NCBI GenBank assembly: GCA_965285935.1
Contig: OZ260667.1
Coordinates: forward strand, 33,666,001-33,730,000
DNA: 64,000 bases
From: Ophelia neglecta
Lineage: Eukaryota
Direction of reading: 5' to 3'
The notes under the pieces are model-generated. The model was not told where the DNA came from. It made no database searches and saw only the letters and a list, made by a program, of their open reading frames with translations. Each line of letters starts with the position of its first letter. Within the stretch, counting starts at the first letter, position 1. Shown piece by piece: positions 1,443 to 38,585 of the stretch. Both the position numbers and the translations under genes were made by a program.

Positions 1443-1868
1443 ATGAAAATGCTTGCTAATAGGTTCACCCAATCTTTTGTGGAGCACCACCAAAGACCTG
1501 ATAAACAGCAGACGGGTAACGGTAGTGTAGGCTCGCACGGCGGGCTGGACAAGCCCCCTCCGCTGCCCACCAAGGGAATGCCACCCCCGAACTTTTACCA
1601 CCACAAAGGTCCCGCTCCCCCGCCTCCGAGACCGGGCTTCTTCCGTAGCCCCTCCAGCGACTCGGGCTGCTCAGACGTGTTCTTTAACCGCGCCGACACC
1701 AGCACCAACACGACCAAGACTCCGTCTTATACATTCTCTGCTTTTTCTTCCTCCTCACAGGAGATGGTCGGTGTAGAAACCTTCATTGACTTTGTAAAGA
1801 AAAGGGACATTGGCAGAATCAAGTTCGCTATACGAGAAACAAACTTCGATATTGACTCCCAGGATGAA
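1443..1868 (+). CDS. Roco gene coding exon 1: Pro/Ser-rich N-terminus plus first (partial) ankyrin repeat
   Basis: ATG at 1443 lies within ORF 1416..1988. Sequence is GC-rich and coding-like, ending FIDFVKKRDIGRIKFAIRETNFDIDSQDE, then donor GAA|gtaagt, after which it becomes AT-rich. The true start could be 1449 or in an upstream exon. Confidence 0.8.
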
Positions 1869-19985: not shown

Positions 19986-20096
19986 GATGGACGAACTGCG
20001 CTGCATCACGCCATTGTTCACGGGGTCGTCGATAATGACCTGGAGGTTGCTCAACATCTTATCAATTTTGGCTGTGATGTTAACATCAAGGATGAG
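19986..20096 (+). CDS. Roco gene exon 2: ankyrin repeat
   Basis: Encodes DGRTALHHAIVHGVVDNDLEVAQHLINFGCDVNIKDE, matching the ankyrin consensus G-x-T-[AP]-L-H-x-A...L-I-x-x-G-x-D-V-N-x-x-D. Acceptor tttttttctgcag|, donor GAG|gtatgt; 111 bp, phase 0/0. Confidence 0.9.
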
Positions 20097-22660: not shown

Positions 22661-22783
22661 ACACCTCATCGAGAATCTGCCATCCACGTAGCTATACGCT
22701 TGGGGCACCTCGAGGCGGTCAAAATGCTGCTCGAGGCACCCTCCTTTGATATAGTCAGATGTGACGCATTTCAGCGAGCAAAG
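22661..22783 (+). CDS. Roco gene exon 3: ankyrin repeat
   Basis: Encodes TPHRESAIHVAIRLGHLEAVKMLLEAPSFDIVRCDAFQRAK (ankyrin SAIHxA..GHLExVKxLL). Acceptor tttatttcag|, donor AAG|gtaagt; 123 bp, phase 0/0. Confidence 0.88.
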
Positions 22784-24351
22784 GTAAGTAGCAAAACCAG
22801 ACGATATCATGTTTGTATTGTGTGTGGGACTCAATACATGATTTTGTCATTTTAAATATTGAAAGCGTGCCATTTTGGAACTGTATTAAATATATATAGC
22901 TTTATAATGCTATTGCCACCGTATGATGAGTCAAACAGTCCATATTTCGCCCAGTGAATACCTGACTCGGAACAATCTACGATCTCAGCCAGTGTGGCGA
23001 AATTAACCAGAAAAAGTCAAATAACTTTTAAGCAGGATTTATAAAAAATGGCAATACATACATAAATTTCTTATTTGCTAGCCAGGTGGATGATCTCAGA
23101 AAATCAGTCAGGCAATTCCGAACGTTTTTGGGCCGGTGAGAGTGTAAACATGTTTAATTTTTTGTTCTCTATATAGCAAATGATCTGAATACGATCAGGC
23201 AAGAAGGTTCATGTCTGATCTGTTTTATGAGGTTATTTTTCCAACCGCTTAAAAAATAGACATCTTAGCCATTATTTCACAGGATTTATCTTTGGATGTC
23301 CTGGCTGCTGTCTGTGATATTCTTGTTACCTGGACAAACCAGAAGTCTGGATACCCTGGCAGACGATACAAACTCATTAATCATAAATAGTCCAATTGAT
23401 GGGTCTGAAATCATCAGAACCGTCAGCGGCAGGCATACATACATGATTACCTATAGTTCCTTTACTATAGATAAGCTTGTAACGAAAAAATATATAAGAA
23501 AATAAGAAAATTGGATTGCTTGTCATAAGAAGTGGTCAACAGTTTTCCGTGATGCCAGTCATAAAATAAAACAAAAGAGTGAGTGGTTTGTGTAGGTCAG
23601 AGATGAAGTATGGCGTAGGAGAGTATAATATGATGGACTAGTCTCTTGAAAGTTCACCCGTCATTGTTAACAACGTGCCGGCACTTGATCACATCGCAAC
23701 GTAACACTATTATACGGAAAAAAATACAACACTGGGAACACTGGGTGGGAAAACAATACAGGAATTGGAGGAAAATTCGAAATCGACCTAGCTGTAGGCT
23801 TGGTTTGAGTTTGTATAGTCATGCGCATACAAAGGCGTCAAACTAGGTCAAATGAAGAGCAGACTGTGCCCGGAGGCACAGTCTGGGTCGGGTTTGCTTG
23901 GATTTAGGTTGGCATAATTATACAACGGATATGAGATGCAATATAATGACTCATGTGTCTATAAACTTACATACATTTTGCCATAACTTGCTGGCCCCTC
24001 CCTTTGCTTCGGGGTATATCATCAGGCTGCACACTCGAGGATGAGAGCCGTGCAGCCATCCAGATGAAAGTCTGTTGACCCAGATTCGTCTTTTGATGTA
24101 GTCACGCGTCATCCTACCCATGCATCCAAGTGACCTCTGCGAGCCACCCAAATGGTTGAAGAGGTCAATAAACACTTTCTTTGAAGCATATACTTGCTTT
24201 CTCTTTCATCATTGGCTGTTTTTAATTAAAACTTGTAACAGATTTTATATTAACCGAATACGCTTTATTTGGGAGATGTTTTTCTGCGGTTTCTTTGCTA
24301 CAGGCGGGTCCGGCGTCATTATTATTAGGTCACTGGCAGACGACAGAACAT

Positions 24352-24432
24352 AAAGACGGACAGTGGGCTTGAACCCAGCCAGACTCCGCTATCTACTCAC
24401 AACCGCCGCAGCCTCACCGCTCCCTCGCTATT
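24352..24432 (-). mobile_element. Degenerate tRNA-derived SINE-like head
   Basis: Minus strand reads TAGCGAGGGAGCGG (weak A-box-like) ... GGGTTCAAGCCC (B-box/T-loop-like) followed by TGTCCGTCTTT. No complete cloverleaf. Confidence 0.25.
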
Positions 24433-26984
24433 CAGGGAGATGATTGGACTTAAGCCTGCCGGAATAGAAATGATAATTACAATGGGATATGGCCAGTGAC
24501 AAATTATGGCCAGGTCAGCAGCACAATGCAAGGGTTCCATATCGAAGCCATAGTTCTTATTTGTGATTTCATCTTGGCTGGTGCTCTTTTGAGCCAACTC
24601 GAGAGGGTGATTTCTGCTGTGAAGCTTCACGGCCGTCTTTAGAGTTTCTTGCCTGCCCTCTGACCTCATTTTCCCCTTATAGACGGCAAGAGCCACTGCT
24701 TTATGGCAGCTCCAAACCTAGTTGGTTGTTCCTACCGCGGCTTTGCCGTAATCCGTCTAAGTTGATGTCGTTCATTGACCCAGGAACCGAGTCCTGACAT
24801 GGATGAGAAGCGAGGTTCAATCAAACACGTCTAACCATAGTCCAAGCTTAGCTCTCGCCAGGGCCAAGCGGCTCATCACGGCAGTATTTACAGCGTATTA
24901 TAACACCAGAGATGTTTCAAACCAACCAGCCTAGAGGGAAAATATCTCGCTATTTGGCTGCTTGGGCGTCATCTGTTTTCAATAGAATATGACGGACCTG
25001 TGCTGCGGTCTGGCCGCTGACCAGATGAAGGAAGGGCATTCAGACCATGTGAATGGCGAATTCTCCTCAGGTCCCAGCTGACTGCAGCCGAAACTGACAG
25101 AATGAAAACCTTTACTGGCAGCTAATGTTGTTATTTGACTCTTATAGTATACGTATTCAATCTGCTTCTGGTCCCTCTGGTTCTTATGAGAAATGAACCA
25201 TTGATGTTTTGCGGAAACGGAGATTTGTGTCGGGGCATAACGCGTTTACTGGAATTTCTAGCAAGTTCAGTTTCGTCTCCGGTACCTCCTTCTCTGTGAA
25301 CGATGGTGGAGAAGGGCGCCCCTAATAGATTTAAAACGCCCTAAACGCCCGCCAACAAGCCTTAATGGTGTCAAGCATCCTCCCAAGGTCGCGCTAGGCC
25401 TGTTGAAGTCTGTGAGTGCTGTCCTTAGAACCCGACACGTGTTGGATCACAATAAGAGCAGAGTTCCAGAGCGCAGCACCACTCAACCTCAATTTCAATA
25501 GCGCGACAGTCGATAGCGAAAAAAAACGTCTTTTTTCCTACGGTCTTTAAATAATCATGTCTGAAAACTTCGGCATTTCTCATTTCCCGCAGAAGCCATT
25601 TTATGTATTCTCATGCACCAGATCCTAAATGGTGGGTGGATCGGTTTCGTTAATTTCGCCGCATCACCGGGAATAGTGAAATACTTGTCATTTGTCTGAA
25701 ATAAAAATGATGAAGCTCTATAAATGGCGCTTTGCGAACAGAACACGGGGTAAACACCACCAAGAAGCTCATCAGACAGACCTAACTGTCAGCTTATTCC
25801 CCGCTCACCACGGCCTCCCTGGGGCTCACGTGTGTAGTTGGCTACTTCATTTTTATGCATAGAAATGTCGCTCGGTAGGTCTCCAAGGGAACTCAGACAA
25901 TTGAAGTTATTTCGCGTGTGGTGCAGACGATGCAGATGTCCCTTCATCTTTTCCGTGCGTTGGGATCATGCTCACGTGAGATTGCATTGGATCGTGACAT
26001 CTTATATTCTGTTATAGTAGTATGTCCTATATTAATGTATTATTGGCTCCCAACAACAAGTTTACCTCCCTCTAACAGGTTGTCCGGTCATTATATACCG
26101 ACCTAATTTCATTTCCTTCTAAATCGAGCGCCTTCAGAGAACGCTATTCACGTGAATTAGGATAAGGAGGTCTAATTCAATGTCCACATAACCTCCATGA
26201 CTTACAGCGAGGTTGAGCACCGAAAGTGTAATTACCATCCACAGGGAAAGATTGGTCGCTTAGCGGCCAGAAATGGTATCCTTCCCGGCGCCGACCCAGG
26301 GTCCGTCGACTGACCTTGTCCGCCTGCCGCCGACCACACAGGCCCCTGGTCAGAGGTCGCGTGGTCGGTGGACTAGAGATAGGGAGGAGCGCACGAGCAT
26401 TTCGTCTCCCATTGATCAACTTGTCAGATTAAGCCATTCTTTTAGGGGCCGTTACCACTTTAACTTTACCATTCTTTGTATCGTTCTATCGATCTTATGC
26501 GTGTCTGAGACGTATCCAAGACAATTGCTCGATGCCCTGGATTGGGGCCTAGGTGGCCAGTGTCTATTACAGGATAACTGGCGAGCTTTCCTCGGGAGAG
26601 TATGGGTGATTGCAAATGTAGCATTTTCCCATTCCAAGTGACCCACTTTCTGCAAGGCTCGAGGTGCACTTTTCTCTTAAGCCTCGCCTCAACGAAGAAT
26701 GTTGTTACTATGTTATCCCAAATTTTGATAAACCACTTCTAACCAATGTTTGTGCATAAACGTGCTTCTTAACGCCTTGACTGGAGAAGATCCTCCTTTA
26801 TTGATGAGTAGTTTAGCTTAACCTATTTCTATTCTTCTCAAATATTGTCCAAGTCATTTAGAACGGTCTTGATCTATAACTAGGTGCAGCAGTTAGTCTG
26901 ACACGGCGTGATGCATAACACGTGGCTTCATACCACACCCGGGATACCACACCTCCCAAACCAAGCCAATGATACGGTTATTAT

Positions 26985-27325
26985 ACTGCATGGGCAGACA
27001 AAACCAACCCATTGTAAGGGAGGTTGTTATTGGGCGGACAAAACCACCCCTATGAGTCTTAACTTGGCTGACAAAGCAACCCATTTTTCACTCGACCGAC
27101 AAAACCAACCAGTTGACAATGAAGCTTTACTCGGCAGACATAACCAACCAATTGATAAGGAGATTTTGCTCGACCAAGATAATTCCGCAATTGTCCTGGT
27201 AGTTTTAACCGGCAGACGAAATCAACACATGGTTAGGAAGGTTTCACTAGGCAAACACAACCAACCCATTGATAGGAAAGTTTTACTAGGCAGACTAAAC
27301 CAACCCATTGATAAGGACAATTTCT
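26985..27325. repeat. Degenerate 39-bp tandem repeat (~6 in-register copies plus 2-3 eroded upstream copies), intron 3
   Basis: Core CT(C/A)GGCAGAC..AACCAACCCATTGATAAG recurs at 27091, 27130, 27169, 27208, 27247 and 27286 (exact 39-bp spacing). Confidence 0.85.
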
Positions 27326-28723
27326 CACTTCAGAATACTAAAAATATAGTTTGACTCCTAATATGGTATAAACCACGTTTTATCTTTTTGCCCAATGAAA
27401 GTCACGTACAATTCAGGTCTATAGTATAAATTAACTGGGTCAATGTGCACTTACTACCTCCTTCATACACGGTGACAGCTACCTTCCCAGGCCCCAACCT
27501 GTGCTTTTACCCCACTTTTAATCCCAACTGGCAAACTTTGACCGAGATGGTCATGGACTCATCTGCGTGATCACATTCTGTCTGCCATTACAATTGATCA
27601 TGGAGATGCTTTCTGTTTTAATGAGAGATTTTCAGATTTTTAAAACTAAATAGTTGATTGATTCTCGAAAGCGGCGTACTACTTTGTTGATACAGACCCA
27701 CGACGCAGCTGCAGCTCTAGACCAAGACCCTCTCTTGTTGCCTGTTTAACATTCTGTTGCCTATTGTAAGGTTTTCCGGCCGGTTGTCTGTCGGCACTGA
27801 CCTCCGCTGAGCGTGTGCCCCGGAACCTGGCGATATTCTCTAACCCCGGTCTGCTCTCAGGCCACGCCCGCTGATAGGCCAGAGCCGCGCTCAAGTGATT
27901 GTTCTTTGTCCGTCTAATGGGACTGTCAGATTGTTCAGTAATAAAACCAAATTTAGGACCCAATCAAGGTATAAGTTGCTCCAAGACGGACACATGGGCG
28001 TTGAAATTGGAATTTTTGTGACTGCGCAGACAGGAAATGATGGTTTGTTTCTAATTCGGGAACCAACAGATTGCATAAATACTTGCAAATAGCGTCATTA
28101 TTTTCTAATAAATACTCAAACGCACATATGCTGTTAAAGCGAAAAGAGGAAACAAACTTTATCTAAAATGTCTGTCTATTTTCTTCTAGATGTAGTATCT
28201 GGGTTAGTATTTTAACCTAGATGGTATGACGGGTCATTAGAATGTAGGCTCCGGATACAGTTGCTAGCTTCCTCTTTACTAAAGCCCGGGCCGTTTCAGC
28301 CAGCCCTTATTCCAGTCAGACCTTAGAGGGAAGCAACGCGGCTCCATTTTTTCTGAATGAAGTGTAATTATCTCAATTTTCTGATTATAAGAATTGAAAA
28401 TGCCCGACCTCGAGTAAAACATTTCCCTGCCGTGTGCTCGGCTATGATTGGATTGGGGCTGCCGGGGAGACTCGACTGCCGGTACAGCGCATGTTTTAGT
28501 GCGGGGCAGGGATGGCTTGCTACCGTTGGGAGCTTGATTTGGCTCCACTCATTACTCTGACATTTTTCAATTAGCCAGTCCCTAGTATAGTTGTCACCAA
28601 GAGCCACCTATGGCGATCAGCAACAGTAAATAACCACTCGGGCGCTCTCCAGATACATATATACAATTAAAATAAAGTCCAGCTGTTGCTAATGATATCT
28701 GTTCTGAATGCTTCTTTTTACAG

Positions 28724-28816
28724 ACGATAATGACAACTTCTCAGAACGGGTTTTATATGACCCATGTCTATCAATCTGATCAATCTAGTACCACAGCAAC
28801 CAAGCTGCCATTATTG
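28724..28816 (+). CDS. Possible additional or cassette phase-0 exon of the Roco gene (31 aa)
   Basis: cttctttttacag|ACG...TTG|gtaaga; 93 bp and stop-free in phase 0 (TIMTTSQNGFYMTHVYQSDQSSTTATKLPLL). No domain similarity recognised. Confidence 0.25.
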
Positions 28817-30017
28817 GTAAGAAATGGTGGACATTTTTATCCAGCTTCTTTGGCATCAATTGCAATGCTTCTTATATAAAGAAGTGGAAGCTCTTTTCGT
28901 TTATCCCCTTAGTGGCATCTAATTCACCCTTGTTTGATTTCCTCTAACTCGACTGAGAGGAACTTTGTCAGTTTTAACTGGAATGCCAAATAGTCTTGCT
29001 GCCGGATGAGCTGCAGCCAGTAATTAGACTTGAGTCTGTAAGACATAAAGCTGCTCAAATTTTTTGGCCTATTTACGCCTCTTTCTTGTGACCAGCAATT
29101 GGAAAAAAGATCCAAGATAATGACACTGTATGGCCTTCGCTTTAACAGATATAGTTATACTGTTGGTCTCATACCATGAAAAAAGAACATAAACTTGTCA
29201 AGTAATAAGACTCTAAAGATGGATGTCCAGTCCGGGCGTTGTTTCTGTCGGCTTAAAATCTCGTTAAAATGCAAATGAATTGTATGTCTCATTACATGGC
29301 AAGTTTAACAGCAATCCCCTCCCTAGGGTCGCATTGTGCTCAGCGAAAACCTTTAATTGTAGCTCATAAATCAGGATAGATTAGAGACAGTTGTAGGTCA
29401 TATAGATTGGTCTTTTCTTGTTTCCCTGGACGGGGAAATCTTAAGCCCTCGATAATCCTGTAGTTACCTTTGTCACATGGTATTCTCCCATTCTGGGTAC
29501 GCCATGATGGATGTGTTCAAGGGGCTTAGGTGCAAGGGCTGTCCTCGCCCTCACTGTCATATGCACTGCTTCCAGAAACACATTGATTAAACAATTAGAG
29601 ATCAAAGTCTGATTTTTCTAAGAGAATGCACTTATAAAGGTTCACGGGTGCAAGGTGAGGCAGTGGTGCACTAAAAGCTCATTAACTTCAAAGGTCATTA
29701 ATAAACAGCCAATGACACTCGAAAATGTAAAACATATTCAATTCATTGTGAAATTTTATTTTCCGATTAACTAGGCTGGACATTTGCCCAGTTTTCGATA
29801 TTGCACACTCGTTCATGGTCCGTGCATTTTGACAGGAAATTTGAAGATGTGTATTAATTTATTTGAATGTCGATTGCTTGGCCCAATGCACAAGGAAGCC
29901 CAGAATCCCCAATGAAAGGGAACATGTGTTATTCATTGCAAACAAATATACCTACTTAGTTTGATTGGTGTAACACGCACGCGTGGTGTGATAAAATCAT
30001 ACTGGTAAAGTTATCCT

Positions 30018-30090
30018 ATACATGTATGTATGTATTTATGTGTGTATGTATGTTTGTATATATATATATATATAAATATATATGTATATT
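30018..30090. repeat. Imperfect (TATG)n/(TA)n microsatellite
   Basis: Direct reading. Confidence 0.85.
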
Positions 30091-33000
30091 ATGCTGTCAA
30101 TTTTCATTTCAAAAGTCGTGTGCTACTGAAGCGTCGGGAAGATGCCGTATCCGCGAGTGTCAACGGGTCCTGGGAACGAATTTACACGGCGCTTAGAAAC
30201 GAGAAAGCACATATCCTCCCGATATCGACTTACGTCAGATGACAGTGTCTTTCATGGGTTATGACAAAAGTCGCCTTTAATTTATTCCGACAACACGACT
30301 GAGGAATATGGATTGGTGGGTTTTGACTTGAGCTGTGTCAATAGCTGCTGCGTGTGTATTATGCATAATTGAACAGTGTTTACATCCTGGCCGATAACAT
30401 TGCCAGTCGTAGGTTGACAGGGGGTATTTTGATAGACTAAGGCCCGGATTTGGTGCTCAATGGCTCAAAGCGACCTGTTTAAGTGCGGTGTATTGTTGGT
30501 GACAGTTGACCTGCTGGCCAGAGGTCTGCCTTGTCGGCTTGCCATTCACCTCTCCCGCTGTGAGCTACAGCCCTATAGCCAGAACTTTGATGGACAGGAC
30601 CCCCCGGCCATGCTTCAGCAAAATTGGTCGTGGGTTTTAGGCATCTGTCAGAAACAAAAAGCCAGCTCTGGCATTACTCTTGGATGAATGATCGAGGAAA
30701 TCAATGATAAAAAATGGTCAAAAATCCAGCCAGCAATGCCTGACGCAGCGCGGGACCGTTTAGGGATTAACTTACCAAAACCTTTCTGAATATCGGCGTG
30801 ATCCGAACTATGGCTGTTTTGATAGCTTACACTTTTCGGTGTAATTGAATTGAGCCCTATTGTCGGCCAGCAAACGTAATCAGACAAGTGGAAGCTGCCA
30901 AGGAAGCAGAAGGCCGCGCCCTTTTAATACCTATAATCGCCAGATGACGGCCACGCTGAAATCTCGTCCAGATCTCATTCAAGCGTGATCTCAGTATGAG
31001 CCTTCGTGGGAGACAAGCTAACAAAACCCACCGGAAATTACAGAAATGAAATGCTAAACACATCATTGAGTGCGCAGCTCTTTTGAAGGAATGCAAAAAC
31101 CGTGGCGTGTTGGAAATAAGTCAGTGTGGATGCCTGATTAAATCAGTGTATGTCAGCTTTAAAATGTCGCCTGTCAAAGCCCCGGGCAATAATTTCCATT
31201 ACACAACAAAAATTACAAAATTAGCCCTCATAGACTGCATTTGATCGTTGTAAAGATCAATGATAATTCAACAAAGTACGGTTTATTCTCTGGCGGGGCC
31301 CATCGCAGTCCTCTTGGGCGACCTTGGTTACTATTGGCAATCGATGACGAATCGAATTAAAAAAATTAATGAAGACTGTAGATTCTTTTTACATAGCTTG
31401 CCCTTCATCGCTTCTTGTTAAAAAGCCCCATGAGTCAAATAAAGATTCGATCAGTTGAATTTGTAGTATGAATACATCAATCTTCACTGATATATTGACT
31501 CTCCTTTCGAGTATATCAACTAGAGCAGTGTGGTATTGCTCGGGTTGTTTTTCGGAAGATTTTAGTATAGCCTCTGGCGAGTATTGCTTAAAATCCTTTC
31601 ACTTTTCACTGCCAACGTCATTACACGTATGCTTGCTTTCTGTTCGTTTTGTGTGCGTTTCCTTCCAAGCACACTTATTGAATGCTGCCAGGCTTCTTTT
31701 AATAAACGTGTCAATCCTTTATGATAATATTGCGGTAATGGGGCCGATGATGCATTTGTATTGGTTATTTCATTACAAACAATCAGCTCATTTAAAAAGG
31801 CACGTATCAAAAGAAAACGGAAAATTCAGCACAAAATAAAAATATATAAATTGTTTCTACTCGCCATTCTGGTCGCACATGTAATGTGAAAATAACTTCC
31901 TAACCCGACTGCATCAATTTTATCAATTGCCGTTTTCTCCTCTAAACTGGTTTTATACTCCGAAGAAAATGAAAATTATGTATAACACACTTAAAATCAA
32001 GGCACTTGTCGCTGGCGATTGTTTTCATTTCCACCTGACAAGAAACAATACTTTTCCCCTATTGCTCTTGTCAGTTTTTCTCCATGGTCTTCAATCGCGC
32101 TATCTCAAGGCTGTTGATTTGAACTAATTACTGTATTTGAGGCGATTAGCACACCTAAAGGGAGTGGTGGCCTCCTATCTCCTCTCCATAAGCCATTGAA
32201 AGGTGTGTGGCCAATACCGATGTGACCCTTTTTCCAAGTCTTGTCCTTGGCACTCTTTCCTAACAAACCCCGCCCTTCACTGATGGAGACTAACACATCC
32301 CGACATACATGATCCCACTACTTACCAACACAAAGAAAGCCTTTGTCATAAGCATTGTGGAGAAGTTGAAGACGACACCTGTTTATTAACACTTAAGTAT
32401 CAAACTAGATTACATGTTTCTATTTTATTTTCTTGGAACTCAGACATAACCAGATAATGAGCATCGTAGCTACAAGTCTATTTACTGTTGGGAGCTGGGG
32501 ATTGTTGTATGAGGGCCTGTGGCTGCTGGTTCTTCAAGATCTCGAATCTATTTAATAGACTCTTCTTAATTAAAGATTTCGCTATGTCTGCTGGGTATCC
32601 GCTCCCCCTTTTCCAAAGCTTAAAAGGAATGAAGAAAACAAGTACCCTGATTCCTCCTGGGTATGGACCCTTTGAGTGAACACTGTCCTAGTTTCTTAAG
32701 TACACTTCCTTTCAATAAAGTCTTCTTCCTGATAACATATCACCGGTATCTGGGCGTCTAGCTGTGACCAAATAAGGCACCAACCCACGTGTCATACACA
32801 GTATAGCCTAGTGCCTCTAAGCTTGTTAGAGTCCCGGGGGACGTTACCCTTTCTCGTTTAAAGCCGCCAATCTGACCTAGATTGGGCCTCTGAGGAGCGA
32901 ACACAAAAGCAGAGGAAATTTATTTGGCGATGGCAGTGTTTGGTCCTTATTGTGGGGCTGCCCGATAGCGGCGTTCCATTCTTCAGGGGCAAGTGTTGTG

Positions 33001-34540
33001 AATGCGCTGAACCCGATGGTGGCAGCCATTACCACACAGCCCTTCGTAACTCAACAATAATCTAATCGTGCTGATTACACTACTTTCGCTGCCTTTGTAT
33101 TCTGATTCGGTTCGCAGTGTTTACGAGATGGTCTTGTGACCGGGCGGAATGAAGCACCGCCTTGTCTGCTGGCCTACTCATTTTGGTTTAATGAGAACGG
33201 TTATGCAACATCGTAAGCCGCGTGCTGTATTAGACGGAACGGACGATAAGCGCTGGTAGCCTAACTAAACTTGTAAATGTCAGACATATTCTCGTGTATT
33301 TAATAGGAATAATGACATTTTCCAGATGCCAAGTCATCGCCACTGCCCCAATAAACAAGTGTTGGTCAAATGCCAACTTCTATGATTGTCGCCAATGGAC
33401 TGTCGAGGGGTACACAATATTCGACCGACAGACTATATTGACAACAGACATGTTGAGTAGATTGGCTTTGACTGAATTTGGCAGCCTGTACGCAGTCACG
33501 TTTGTCGGATTATCCTTGTCATGTACGTTGTGCCAACCATGTCAGCCACAACACAGCGTCGGCCTGATTTGCATACGTCTGGGCCTGACGTCGATCTCAC
33601 CTTACGACCTTCGTAATGAAGGTCATTTTCGTGGGACATTTTGTCTTCTAGGTCAGGCGATGCGCAGTTAAGCTGGCTTAATGCTTAGGGCAGAGTCTGT
33701 TTAAAGATGCAATGTTTGGAGCAATTCTCGGACGAATACTAATTGTTAAGCGGTAGCGGAGGTTTCTAAAAGTGGGTCGCCTGAACTGTTCGACCATCGC
33801 CATTTTGCAGCCCGGGAACCATATTTTCTAAGATGTAATCTTGCTGTCGTCCTATGAAAGACGGCATTTCTGAGCAAGAGGGCAATCTGTACAACTGGGA
33901 GTTCGCGGTAACCCTTGCCTCCAGTCAAATCGATTCTACTTGCTCGGTCCCATCCAAACTATTTGCATCCAATTCAAGAGTAAAGTCAATTTCGTCCCTC
34001 TGCGTCTTCGCCGAGTCATATCAGCCCAGAAAGCATCCCAACATAATGGCAGAGAAAAACCACTGCCCAAGTTTTGTCCCAACATATAATTAGAAATAAA
34101 CTGATCGGCGCGTCTTCAATTAAACGGGCTGTTCTGCGATTAGCCTTCCTTATCTTGGTCCCCGGTCGTCTGCCAGAAAAGAGAGTCTTTTAACCAATCT
34201 AAAACCATATTATACAGTAAATGTATTGCGAAGGAAAGCCATCGACTGCCACGTGTTCGGGTCAGTCGAGCAGTACAGAATGTATCTCAAATGTTATAGT
34301 ACCTTGGAAAAGGAAGTCTCTTATTATTACCATATTTACGTATCTGTATCTCAATACTTTTCAGCACTCAAAACTTTATTCATTTAAAGCAAGTATCACT
34401 GCTGTCTACATATAATTTGAAGCTGGAATAATAATTACTAAAGTTGATAGATATAGCAATTGGTTAACATAAACATTTTGATGTTGTTGATGCTGTTGAA
34501 TACTTTTCCACTGATAATTCTACGTTGTTTTTTTCCACAG

Positions 34541-37500
34541 ATGCTGCCTGAAGCGTGCATTATCGACGATGTTTACAACAAGCCGCCTCCCGACAGCGAC
34601 TCGACGCTCACCAAACGACGGAGCTTCGGAGACCAGTATCTGTTGTTTGTGCATCAAAACACGAGAGACTATATGGAAAATAACTTCCCGCCGGGTCGCG
34701 AGAGCATACGAGATATGATCATCCTGCAGGACGAGTGTGTGCCGCCCTTACAGGAGATGCTTCACCGGGTGGACTACGCTCAACTGAGTACTTTATACGT
34801 GGTGGACTGCAGACTGCATATGGACGATGCAAATATATTCAAGGACCTCTCTCTACGAGCGTTGGTGCTATCACACACTCATATGCGACGGATGCCGAGG
34901 AGTATCTTTGAAATCGACTCGTTGGAGATTCTAAAGGTTGATCGTAACAACCTAGAGGAGATTCCCGCCGAGTTAGGTAACCTGAGCAACCTTAAATCCT
35001 TCTCTTGTGATAGCCAGCGGCCGCGGCTTCGGACTTTGCCTCATTCCATAACCCAACTGGAACACCTACAGATACTGTCTTTTAGCAATAATCGTGTGGA
35101 GAACATTTCCTGGGTGGTGGCGTTGCCTAGCCTGAGGGTGCTGCGGTGCAGCAACAACCGCATCGCACGGCTGCCCAACCAGCTGGCCAACCTCCGCGAC
35201 CTGATGGTGCTCGACGTCAGTCACAACCGCCTAGAGTATATCCCTCCTTCTTTCGTCGATCTTGTGTGTAGACTCTTTCGCTTCGATTACTATAACCTCA
35301 CCCTCAGGCCAAAACATATCATGCACAACCGGGCTCAACTTCTCGCCTACCTAGAACTGGACGCCTTCTTGGCGCAGTCTCCAGTGCGCAGAACAGGACG
35401 TGACGTTAGCGTGGCCATCGTGGGAGAATCCAATTCGGGTAAGTCCACGCTGGTGGAAGCGCTGAAAAACGAGAAAGGAATTAGTAAGTCGGAGATGCGG
35501 CAGGAATCTACATTCGAGATTCATCAGTTCGAGATGCACGGCGCCGAGAGCAGCTGTTACATCAGCACGATAGTTCTGGCCAACGACATCCTTGACAATT
35601 TTAGTCGCAATGTACAAGTAGACATTTACCTCTTAGTGGTAGACCTGACTTCGCTCGAGCTGCAGAACGGCTCCCAGCATCTGTTCGCGCGGCACGTTAA
35701 CCGTCTACAGATGTGGCTGACGGCGCTGTACGAGTCGAACCCCGACACACCGGTGTTGATCGTCGGCACGCACGCCGAACTGGTCAAGTCCATGACGTTC
35801 AGTGACATCTGGCACATCCTCGACGGCTTTCTCGACCAGGGCCGCGCTCATCACATTAAACGCTACGCTGACTGCCGCTTAGGCAACTGTCTGCTCTGCT
35901 GTCCCAAAAACCTGGCCATCCGGCAGGTCATCGCCAAAAGCCGGTCGGGCTCGGCCGGCTTCGTCGACCTTTCCTACCCCCACGGTGAGCCCATAATGAA
36001 CGGACATGTGCCAACGGGCGAGTCGCCACCACCGGGTAAGCATCGTTTCCCACACATCGTCGGCTACTACGAGATAGACTCTAAAAAGAACCTGCCAAAA
36101 GACTCAAAAAAGTCCAACATCAGTATTGAACAGCTGAAGGGTGCTATCATGCGGCTGACGGCGTGTAGCCCGGACGACGGGATCCCACCTAACTGGCTCT
36201 CCTTCATCCGACACGTGGCCACCATTAACGTGCAGGCGCCCACCTTGCCCTGCATCCCCTACGAAGAGGTAATCTCCATCTCTCGTAGCTTTGATATCGC
36301 CCCCGCTCAGGTCCCCTACATGCTGCAGTACTTTCACCAGCGAGGCAAGGTAGTTTACTTCGGTCAGGACGAGGTGTTATCCAAGCTAGTAGTGATCAGC
36401 CCAAACTGGTTTATCCAAGTGCTGTCGAGGGCTTTTGACAGTTTTATGACAAGTAAGTGTTCGGAGGCAGAGTTGATAGAGACATTACAAGACAGGGAGT
36501 TAGACCGGCAGTTACAGAAAGCAGGGGTGGTGTCCATATCGAGTGCTCACTGGCTCCTAGCCGCACTCACGCGACTGGACATTTGCGTGCCTTTCGTAGA
36601 TACCCGTGACCAGAAGATGTTCCTCCTACCAAACCTGTTGGAGATAGGCCAGCCCTCAATGGACGTGTGGCCCGATGTACCCGAATGGGAGGAGAAGCAA
36701 ATCACCTGCGACTTCGGCATCCGTGCGCTGAAGCCTGCACTCTTCTCTGATCTCATCCTGCGGGTGAACAAAGAGGGCCGGCGGATGCTGGAGATCGTGT
36801 CCGACCCAGCCCCGGTCTTCCTTTCCCACCACATCGTGTTCTACTGCGGCGTCGACGTCGGCGGCTGCGAGGACTGCTACGCAATCCGCCGACGGATACG
36901 CCAGCAGAACAAACACTACGAAGACGACTCTCTGGAGGACGACATTCTGCACAAGGTGCACATTCAACTACACCCCCATATGGACACGCTACGCATTGCC
37001 GTGCGAGGCGTCAGCCCCTGCTGTACTATAAAGGCCGTGCTCAACTTCCTAGAACTGTACTTGGACGACATACCGGAGGAGGACTGCGACACGTCCTCCG
37101 ACCGGACCAGTGTGTCCTCTCACGCCCTGAGCGCCGTCAGCTCAGCCACTACCAACGACGGTTCAGTCAATTCTGACCGCTGTAGTCTTACCTCCGTCTC
37201 TCAGTCACACTGTACCTCGGAGGAGGACGACGAACGACAATTTTTTCTGCTGTGCCCCAAATGTGTTCTTCTCAGACATGCCAATCCAGAGCGAATATCC
37301 TATCAGATGATTTCGCCGAAGCGCAAGGCCATTTGCAGTAAATGGCATAATCTGGGCAGCTGGTCCCGTGCGGTGACCGGGGATTACCGCTACACCAATG
37401 ACTTTCTGATGTCAAGCTCGCTGGGCTACCTGCCGGAGTACGAACATCCGCGGTTGGTGCTCGTCCTGCCGCCGAGCATCTCCGTGTCCAGCAAAGACTG

Positions 37501-38089
37501 GTACATGTTCAGCCGCATGAAGTTCCTCGAGGGCTTCGAAGTTCACTTCCTCTGCGAGTACACCGGTTACTGGCACATGACAGACGATGCCGGTTTCCGG
37601 CTCAACCAGTCAGCGCATTTCACAAAGAAGGTAGGCAACATGACGCCCACCATTCTCAATCTGGCCTTGCCCATGATTCAGATCGTCAACGGGATCGTCG
37701 AACACAGTCAGAATGGTCGGCTGCTGACGCCGGTCGTAGCCGATCTCATCAAAATGTACGATTACCTACGAAATGTAGATACCATCACGGGCGACCCTTA
37801 CACCTGGCTCACCAAAAACAAAGATCGGGTGGTCACCATGCTGACTAAAGTGCTGGCCAACGCCAGCGACGGATTTCCTGATCTCTATTTTAAAGTGGGA
37901 AATGCCATAAATGCAGACATGGTCTTCCAAGCGGCTTCCCGCGCAAACCGTTATGATTTGGCCAAATTCTTACGCATAGAAGCCAGCTCGGGAAGATTCG
38001 GGCCTCTTCGGCCACTGTATGTCGGTCGGGAGGTCCGATGGCTTTGCGATGCACACTATGAGGAACTGCGAAGCATGCCGTCCAAGTAA
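34541..38089 (+). CDS. Roco gene terminal exon: LRR repeats, ROC (Ras-of-complex) P-loop domain, COR domain and C-terminal Cys/His domain (1182 aa)
   Basis: ORF 34460..38089 with acceptor ttttttccacag| at 34540. About 6-7 LxxLxLxxNxL-type LRRs (e.g. LEILKVDRNNLEEIPAELGNLSNL, LMVLDVSHNRLEYIP). P-loop VAIVGESNSGKST at 35423-35449; VLIVGTHAE; COR hallmarks IPPNW and LQYFHQRGKVVYFG..LVVISPNW; stop TAA 38087-38089. Confidence 0.95.
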   Translation: MLPEACIIDDVYNKPPPDSDSTLTKRRSFGDQYLLFVHQNTRDYMENNFPPGRESIRDMIILQDECVPPLQEMLHRVDYAQLSTLYVVDCRLHMDDANIFKDLSLRALVLSHTHMRRMPRSIFEIDSLEILKVDRNNLEEIPAELGNLSNLKSFSCDSQRPRLRTLPHSITQLEHLQILSFSNNRVENISWVVALPSLRVLRCSNNRIARLPNQLANLRDLMVLDVSHNRLEYIPPSFVDLVCRLFRFDYYNLTLRPKHIMHNRAQLLAYLELDAFLAQSPVRRTGRDVSVAIVGESNSGKSTLVEALKNEKGISKSEMRQESTFEIHQFEMHGAESSCYISTIVLANDILDNFSRNVQVDIYLLVVDLTSLELQNGSQHLFARHVNRLQMWLTALYESNPDTPVLIVGTHAELVKSMTFSDIWHILDGFLDQGRAHHIKRYADCRLGNCLLCCPKNLAIRQVIAKSRSGSAGFVDLSYPHGEPIMNGHVPTGESPPPGKHRFPHIVGYYEIDSKKNLPKDSKKSNISIEQLKGAIMRLTACSPDDGIPPNWLSFIRHVATINVQAPTLPCIPYEEVISISRSFDIAPAQVPYMLQYFHQRGKVVYFGQDEVLSKLVVISPNWFIQVLSRAFDSFMTSKCSEAELIETLQDRELDRQLQKAGVVSISSAHWLLAALTRLDICVPFVDTRDQKMFLLPNLLEIGQPSMDVWPDVPEWEEKQITCDFGIRALKPALFSDLILRVNKEGRRMLEIVSDPAPVFLSHHIVFYCGVDVGGCEDCYAIRRRIRQQNKHYEDDSLEDDILHKVHIQLHPHMDTLRIAVRGVSPCCTIKAVLNFLELYLDDIPEEDCDTSSDRTSVSSHALSAVSSATTNDGSVNSDRCSLTSVSQSHCTSEEDDERQFFLLCPKCVLLRHANPERISYQMISPKRKAICSKWHNLGSWSRAVTGDYRYTNDFLMSSSLGYLPEYEHPRLVLVLPPSISVSSKDWYMFSRMKFLEGFEVHFLCEYTGYWHMTDDAGFRLNQSAHFTKKVGNMTPTILNLALPMIQIVNGIVEHSQNGRLLTPVVADLIKMYDYLRNVDTITGDPYTWLTKNKDRVVTMLTKVLANASDGFPDLYFKVGNAINADMVFQAASRANRYDLAKFLRIEASSGRFGPLRPLYVGREVRWLCDAHYEELRSMPSK

Positions 38090-38129
38090 CTACCAAATGT
38101 CTCTAGTATGCACACCGTAATGAAATATT

Positions 38130-38135
38130 ATTAAA
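38130..38135 (+). promoter_or_regulatory. Candidate poly(A) signal ATTAAA after the Roco stop
   Basis: ATTAAA 41 bp after the stop in AT-rich, 3'UTR-like sequence. Other downstream signals (e.g. AATAAA near 40018) are equally possible. Confidence 0.2.
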
Positions 38136-38585
38136 CATGAAAAAAATTGTACATTGTACTTCATGCATTGTAAATATGATAAACACGGTAATATCTCCCT
38201 GAAGATAAACTCACCTCTGTTAAACGTTAAGAAGGCTTTGTTTAGATTTGAATGCCAAGATTACTCGAGGTCAAAGTTTGTACTACATATAATATATAAT
38301 TATATATATACAAGTGTATATTGGTTAAGATATTTTCTTTCTCTAGACAATCACTTCTAAGCCAATGTCTAGATGTTTGTGGTCTGACCATTGCATGGTT
38401 GAATATGATCTTAATGTATGCTCGCCTTTCATAATATATGCAGACTACTGGTTTCGATAGAAGTTATCTATTGGCTATGCCTAAGGGGGGGTCCTTGATA
38501 TTATGCATAAACGATTTTCTCAAAAGAAACTGTACTTGAATGCGATGATGCTATCTGTTACTAAAGTTTGAATATGCATAAAATA

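Follow-up and report, generated by a model that had tools for sequence, protein, structure and literature searches.

There is still debate on how the ROC-COR module of LRRK2 and its relatives works, with a GTP switch, a nucleotide-gated dimer and a scaffold under discussion. According to a review, conservation among Roco proteins is highest in the switch II DxxG region and at the Roc-COR interface, and the most conserved patch of COR is contacted by switch II (PMC6337361). In the Chlorobium tepidum Roco protein (CtRoco), movement of switch 2 leads to monomerisation, rotation of COR-B and opening of the LRR (PMC11052575). GTPase folds that do not cycle have been described as pseudo-GTPases (PMC10211241, PMC5593906, PMC12490416). 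In the classes defined in PMC5593906, CENP-M, AAGAB and p190 pG1 belong to class i (no nucleotide bound), the N-terminal domain of p190RhoGAP and Rnd to class ii (nucleotide bound, no catalysis), and the RGK GTPases (Rad, Gem, Rem), which depart from the GDP/GTP switch (PMC4081519), to class iii. None of the class i and class ii examples is coupled to a COR domain, and in the searchable literature, outside of which most subscription journals lie, we found neither a Roco protein without G3 nor a publication joining Roco with pseudoGTPase or Roc-COR with annelid. Here, we analyzed a window of 64,000 nucleotides from Ophelia neglecta (contig OZ260667.1), to which all positions refer, and found a gene for a Roco protein whose ROC domain has lost the G3 motif.

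The ROC domain is encoded in a reading frame of 1210 codons on the plus strand (34457-38089 in the ORF list of the window). The earlier note on this DNA had described an otherwise intact long ORF; the frame is indeed open, and it constitutes the final exon of a spliced gene encoding an ANK-LRR-ROC-COR protein with a C-terminal Cys/His domain. This last coding exon (34541..38089, +; acceptor CCACAG) comprises 1182 codons and a stop codon, and residues are numbered from the ATG at 34541. The upstream exons were located from P0046 and P0047, two orthologues with longer N-termini. The first coding exon seen (1443..1868, +) contains the start of the ankyrin region at 1761-1868, is 72% identical to the orthologue P0046 over 1752-1868 (tblastn), and is followed by a GTAAGT donor at 1869. 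Its 5' end is uncertain, the two candidates being an in-frame ATG (1443) and a splice acceptor (1760) followed by an ATG (1764), and no additional exons were found in the 30 kb upstream. Two ankyrin repeat exons lie at 19986..20096 (+; Pfam Ank E 8.8e-8, 79% identity to P0047) and 22661..22783 (+; Pfam Ank E 9.9e-5, 72% identity to P0047), both with AG/GT borders in phase 0. All introns are GT-AG and in phase 0, joining the four exons preserves the frame up to one terminal stop, and a hexamer resembling a poly(A) signal is located at 38130.

Within the last exon, leucine-rich repeats (34775..35263, +; Pfam LRR_14 E 2.9e-16, LRR_8 E 1.1e-13) precede the ROC domain (35402..36160, +), which is directly followed by COR-A and COR-B (36185..37069, +). 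COR-A was recognized by Pfam (E 7.1e-14), and COR-B was assigned via profile alignment to the paralogues and a structural alignment reaching residue 1796 of LRRK2. The protein therefore has the arrangement of the Roco family, with ROC followed by COR and with the repeat domains (LRR, ankyrin) N-terminal of ROC. It shares the LRR-ROC-COR order, the ROC-COR fold and a THxD-type G4 with LRRK2, LRRK1 and C. tepidum Roco, and the ankyrin repeats ahead of the LRR with the LRRKs. Unlike these proteins, it has neither kinase nor WD40 domain, it has lost G2, G3 and the switch II His, and it carries a CxxC insertion in ROC and the C-terminal Cys/His domain. Indeed, a Pfam scan detected no kinase family in either the last exon or full-length orthologues, which also sets the protein apart from the LRRK and DAPK kinases. 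A kinase-less LRR-ROC-COR core is described for MFHAS1 and Tornado1 (PMC4104024), but the protein studied here has ankyrin repeats in addition; this is a comparison of architecture, not of direct orthology.

A DNA contig from run X1 matched the window over 35232-38500 with zero differences and zero gaps, although it possibly derives from the source sample and hence does not count as independent support. No spliced joints were seen in the three runs across the locus, which bears on expression neither way. In the third intron, the X1 and X3 contigs join across 7.6 kb (24226-31833) with 27 other letters between; this stretch is likely an insertion polymorphism or an alternative haplotype. Nearby, at 32020-32670, the depth was approximately 6-12 times that of the flanks in all three runs, marking a high-copy intron repeat.

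The ROC domain scored below the cut-off in Pfam (Roc E 0.003), compared with E 2.9e-11 for the intact paralogue P0107. The P-loop (G1) reads GESNSGKST (35423..35449, +) and agrees with GxxxxGK[ST], whereas the other features of a canonical active ROC (the G2 Thr, the G3 DxxG, the THxD of G4 and the G5 Ser) are missing. In the switch I/G2 region RQESTFEI (35498..35521, +; KTDGI in the intact counterpart), the Thr is replaced by Glu322. At the end of strand beta3, the G3 site reads ISTIVLANDI (35561..35590, +) with Val345 in place of the Asp, and switch II is about two residues shorter. G4 is VGTHAE (35762..35779, +), with Glu where Asp is canonical, and sequence comparison places Asp513 at the position of the Ser in G5, EIDSKK (36071..36088, +). 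All four motifs named in the earlier note (G1, G3, G4 and G5) were thus found where it had placed them in the plus-strand frame. Its claim that the P-loop is intact while G3 is lost was borne out, and the G2 Thr is lost in addition.

The assignment of Val345 to the G3 Asp was made by profile-profile alignment; MAFFT agreed, and beta3 ends at this residue in the structural model. A canonical G3 elsewhere, which the earlier note had named as an observation that would speak against its reading, was looked for by model, profile alignment and motif scan and was not found; D-x-x-G is absent from the stretch of the last-exon product that spans ROC (residues 281-550). FEMHG (residues 330-334; FDMQG in P0007) resembles FDxxG and was considered as an alternative G3. 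It was rejected, as in the model it closes beta2 and opens the beta2-beta3 hairpin, tens of residues are inserted behind it in orthologues, and its Gly is not conserved.

An AlphaFold model of residues 256-843, built from an alignment that included four intact relatives, reached a mean pLDDT of 84 for ROC-COR. Its best structural matches were LRRK1, LRRK2 and Roco proteins of bacteria or archaea (Foldseek E 1e-17 to LRRK1), and the top 24 matches were all Roco ROC-COR structures. Comparison with LRRK2 (Z 24.1, rmsd 4.1, 421 residues aligned) and with C. tepidum Roco (3dpu, Z 21.6), which had been suggested as a check, showed that the predicted ROC-COR fold is kept. Matches to Rho/Ras GTPases reached Z of about 15 with an rmsd of 2.3-2.9 over about 160 residues, and an Atlas search with the ROC of the homologue P0005 returned Ras/Roc clusters only. 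As judged from the model, ROC keeps the GTPase fold despite its degenerate motifs. By sequence, no PDB match below E 0.4 was obtained with ROC-COR and none with COR alone.

The searches for relatives gave 41 matches in one case, 24 when started from an intact relative, and 150 listed of 276 representatives. All but one of the 41 matches span at least 67% of the query, with 60-75% identity in the best ones. For counting, we used 71 proteins that reach from P-loop to C-terminal region, namely 30 G3-less proteins including that of the window and 41 intact ones; we excluded fragments, P0030 and P0271 (no clean cut), the distant P0106 and several near-duplicates within the P0031-P0038 group. Fragments of the G3-less type that cover ROC likewise have no motif at beta3. 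The G3 Asp was present in none of the 30 G3-less proteins and in all 41 intact ones, and the same division was seen for the G3 Gly (6/30 vs 40/41), the Thr of G2 (2/30 vs 39/41) and the His of switch II (0/30 vs 40/41). At the position of the G3 Asp, the G3-less proteins mostly have a hydrophobic residue (Val in 22/30). No KTxG-like motif was found in any of the 30, with the alignment of switch I being gappy. In the P-loop, both Gly are common to the two groups and the Lys is nearly invariant (29/30 vs 41/41), while the Ser/Thr is kept in 23 of the 30 compared with 41/41, the seven exceptions being Ala, Arg, Cys, His or Lys.

The loss of G3 is hence shared by the orthologues, but the Glu in G4 is not: the G3-less proteins have Glu in 18 and Asp in 12 cases, so that this position is always acidic (30/30; 40/41 in the intact group, each time Asp). 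Glu was therefore rejected as a marker of the clade, and the earlier proposal of altered nucleotide specificity via G4 is weakened. Judged by sequence, the fixed change of the base pocket is that of Ser to Asp in G5 (Asp in 28/30 G3-less proteins, Ser in 38/41 intact ones). One member of the intact group, P0218, has FDIAQ at G3 and no G2 Thr; here the switch has perhaps decayed independently for a second time.

To locate where conservation dropped, mean pairwise identity was compared between the 30 G3-less proteins and their 17 closest intact paralogues. From ROC to the protein's C-terminal end, the two groups are similar (0.46 G3-less vs 0.49 intact). Switch II, however, fell to 0.43 compared with 0.95 in the paralogues and the P-loop region to 0.58 compared with 0.86, while the values were 0.72 vs 0.79 for the G4 region, 0.48 vs 0.45 for COR-B and 0.52 vs 0.43 for the C-terminal domain. 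A sliding-window comparison (879 windows) placed the five strongest drops without mutual overlap at switch II, in COR-A (619-634), in COR-B (725-740), at switch I and at the P-loop. The COR-A segment is the DPxWL motif (LDPIWL in LRRK1), the Asp of which is found in 5/30 G3-less and 35/41 intact proteins. The COR-B segment aligns to FVPVGFW of LRRK1, and the corresponding segment of LRRK2 presumably contains Y1699. Both segments would correspond to the conserved COR patches of the review mentioned above. Since the two ends of the relay, switch II and COR, appear to have relaxed together, loss of switching fits better than a shifted motif.

Trees were calculated from columns behind ROC only (COR and C-terminal domain), using site-homogeneous models and no outgroup root. 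All G3-less proteins formed one clade on a long stem, with a support of 99 (72 rows), 100 (57 rows) and 100/100 (33 rows). This indicates one loss instead of 30, and the 30 sequences are not independent. The named members are from Paralvinella, Ridgeia and Helobdella, and the label "annelid" for this clade rests on these three. The family as a whole occurs in Hydractinia, hemichordates, Branchiostoma, Tubulanus and annelids. Named intact members come from Paralvinella, Tubulanus, Hydractinia, Glandiceps, Saccoglossus and Branchiostoma, and the intact state is therefore very likely ancestral. A direct sister relationship between the annelid/nemertean intact clade and the G3-less clade had a p-AU of 0.42, and a search from the deep-branching P0136 returned only itself. 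An intact paralogue with ankyrin exons is present in the same genome on another chromosome-scale contig (G000:C7, near 71.56 Mb) and has the motifs KTDGI, FDCGG, GTHAD and EISS. LRRK2, aligned to the intact paralogue, shows WDFAG, STH and GTHLD. The intact ANK-LRR-ROC-COR paralogues (P0041, P0107) share the whole architecture with the G3-less protein, including the CxxC insertion and the C-terminal domain (profile match over 948 columns, E 1.7e-122, 25% identity), but they keep KT[DE]G, FDxxG, THAD and E[VI]SS almost invariantly.

With a GTPase fold and lost motifs, the protein agrees with the sequence definition of a pseudoGTPase, and the absence of both the switch I Thr and the switch II DxxG makes it likely that it is locked in one conformation. 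We consider it probable that it represents a conserved annelid pseudo-GTPase Roco that resembles class ii, keeping its nucleotide, not switching and serving as a scaffold in a single conformation; the motif pattern suggests class ii. The retained P-loop Lys and the acidic G4 probably hold guanine nucleotide weakly. Without the G2 Thr and the G3 Asp and Gly, the gamma-phosphate would not be sensed and efficient hydrolysis would not occur. The relay from switch II to COR, which drives LRR opening and the monomer-dimer change in C. tepidum Roco, would be uncoupled, and output would occur via the ankyrin repeats, LRR, COR-B and the C-terminal domain, the latter being better conserved than in the paralogue. 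Loss of switching, as proposed before, is thus supported by the G2 and G3 columns and the relaxation at switch II and the COR patches, while loss of catalysis and the function as a scaffold are inferences.

Instead of holding a nucleotide, the domain might bind none and keep P-loop and G4 to support the fold or to accommodate an anion or a partner, as in class i. The replaced P-loop Ser/Thr in seven proteins and the Asp in G5 next to an acidic G4 argue against nucleotide binding, the P-loop region has become less conserved, and already intact Roco proteins have micromolar affinities (PMC6337361). The near-invariant P-loop Lys, the shared P-loop Gly and the well-conserved, always acidic G4 point the other way, and in the described members of class i the P-loop is degraded as well (PMC5593906, PMC12490416), whereas it is intact here; we regard this alternative as unlikely. 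Somewhat more doubtful still is an atypical but active GTPase, comparable to the RGK proteins of class iii. These small stand-alone Ras-like proteins keep G1, G4 and G5, have a poorly conserved G2 and an altered G3 (PMC4081519), and yet they are classed as retaining some catalysis (PMC5593906, PMC4081519), which counts against a locked domain. The missing residues could be supplied by a partner, for instance the intact paralogue, as some GTPases complement each other's sites in dimers (PMC6337361), or an acid could be displaced: residue 349 is Asp or Glu in 25 of the 30 G3-less orthologues and could act as a Mg ligand. However, RGK proteins retain the G3 Asp (DXWE; in vertebrates) where the G3-less proteins are mostly hydrophobic, residue 349 aligns to a later Asp also present in intact relatives, and what has replaced switch II shows no strong conservation.

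A changed specificity, with ATP or another nucleotide bound, appears very improbable. The frequent Glu in G4 and the fixed Asp in G5 would agree with it, but proteins with Asp and proteins with Glu are mixed on the tree, and no Walker B-type acid has taken the place of the lost one where beta3 ends; besides, G4-G5 vary among Roco proteins in general (PMC6337361). An assembly error, a misalignment or a decaying pseudogene can practically be dismissed. Apart from the weak Pfam Roc score, nothing pointed to an artefact, and the identical DNA contig, the open frame, the GT-AG introns, the agreement of three alignment methods and the length and identity of the matches speak against it; conservation among orthologues refutes it. 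The preferred reading remains that of a Roco protein that is locked but probably still holds its nucleotide.

The C-terminal Cys/His-rich domain (37268..38086, +) is common to the intact relatives, contains no kinase and was modeled with a pLDDT of 89.8. Its conserved residues are C932, H936, H1002, C1005, H1012, C1169 and H1172. No Pfam family and no Foldseek match at E 0.001 were found for it; the best Z among 48,161 chains was 3.0, and Atlas matches reached 0.78 (homologue P0005). The absence of a match does not show a new fold, and the domain is possibly an undescribed zinc-binding domain. Forty-one positions are conserved in the G3-less clade only, and as 21 of them lie beyond residue 900, the C-terminal part may be the working surface of the G3-less protein. 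The insertion between G4 and G5 (35867..36055, +; about 60 residues) is present in both paralogue groups and has the form HH...CxxC with a later PH, its residues H438, C450, C453 and H505 being conserved in both. It may bind zinc, which would place a metal site inside ROC.

The occurrence of perfect G motifs in one protein and of a relaxed switch with relaxed COR contact patches in the other provides a natural pair within one genome and a direct evolutionary control. The relaxed positions map the relay, and comparing both proteins would show which conformation and functions survive without cycling. Roco would join the short list of families with pseudo-GTPases, with G3-less Roco proteins so far known from annelids only and without a kinase domain, and with function read from sequence. 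A bolder proposal, to which we give little weight, would make this protein the first natural example of a switch-dead Roco. In this view, an annelid duplicate abandoned the whole relay from ROC to COR, persisted from polychaetes to leeches in the role of a pseudoenzyme regulator pairing via COR with the active paralogue, and signals via a zinc-binding C-terminal domain of unsolved fold.

Elsewhere in the window, at 55804-57485, a tandem array of approximately 30 copies of a 51-base unit leaves an open frame of 522 codons. Pfam hits to this array contain no significant single stretch, and it is therefore probably a minisatellite. A Pfam Roc search of the O. neglecta genome gave 104 matches, unsorted. 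One intact relative, P0163 from Glandiceps, has a second, Ras-like GTPase domain at residues 6-169 (Pfam Ras E 2e-51), and a similar arrangement is mentioned for Trichoplax in PMC4104024.
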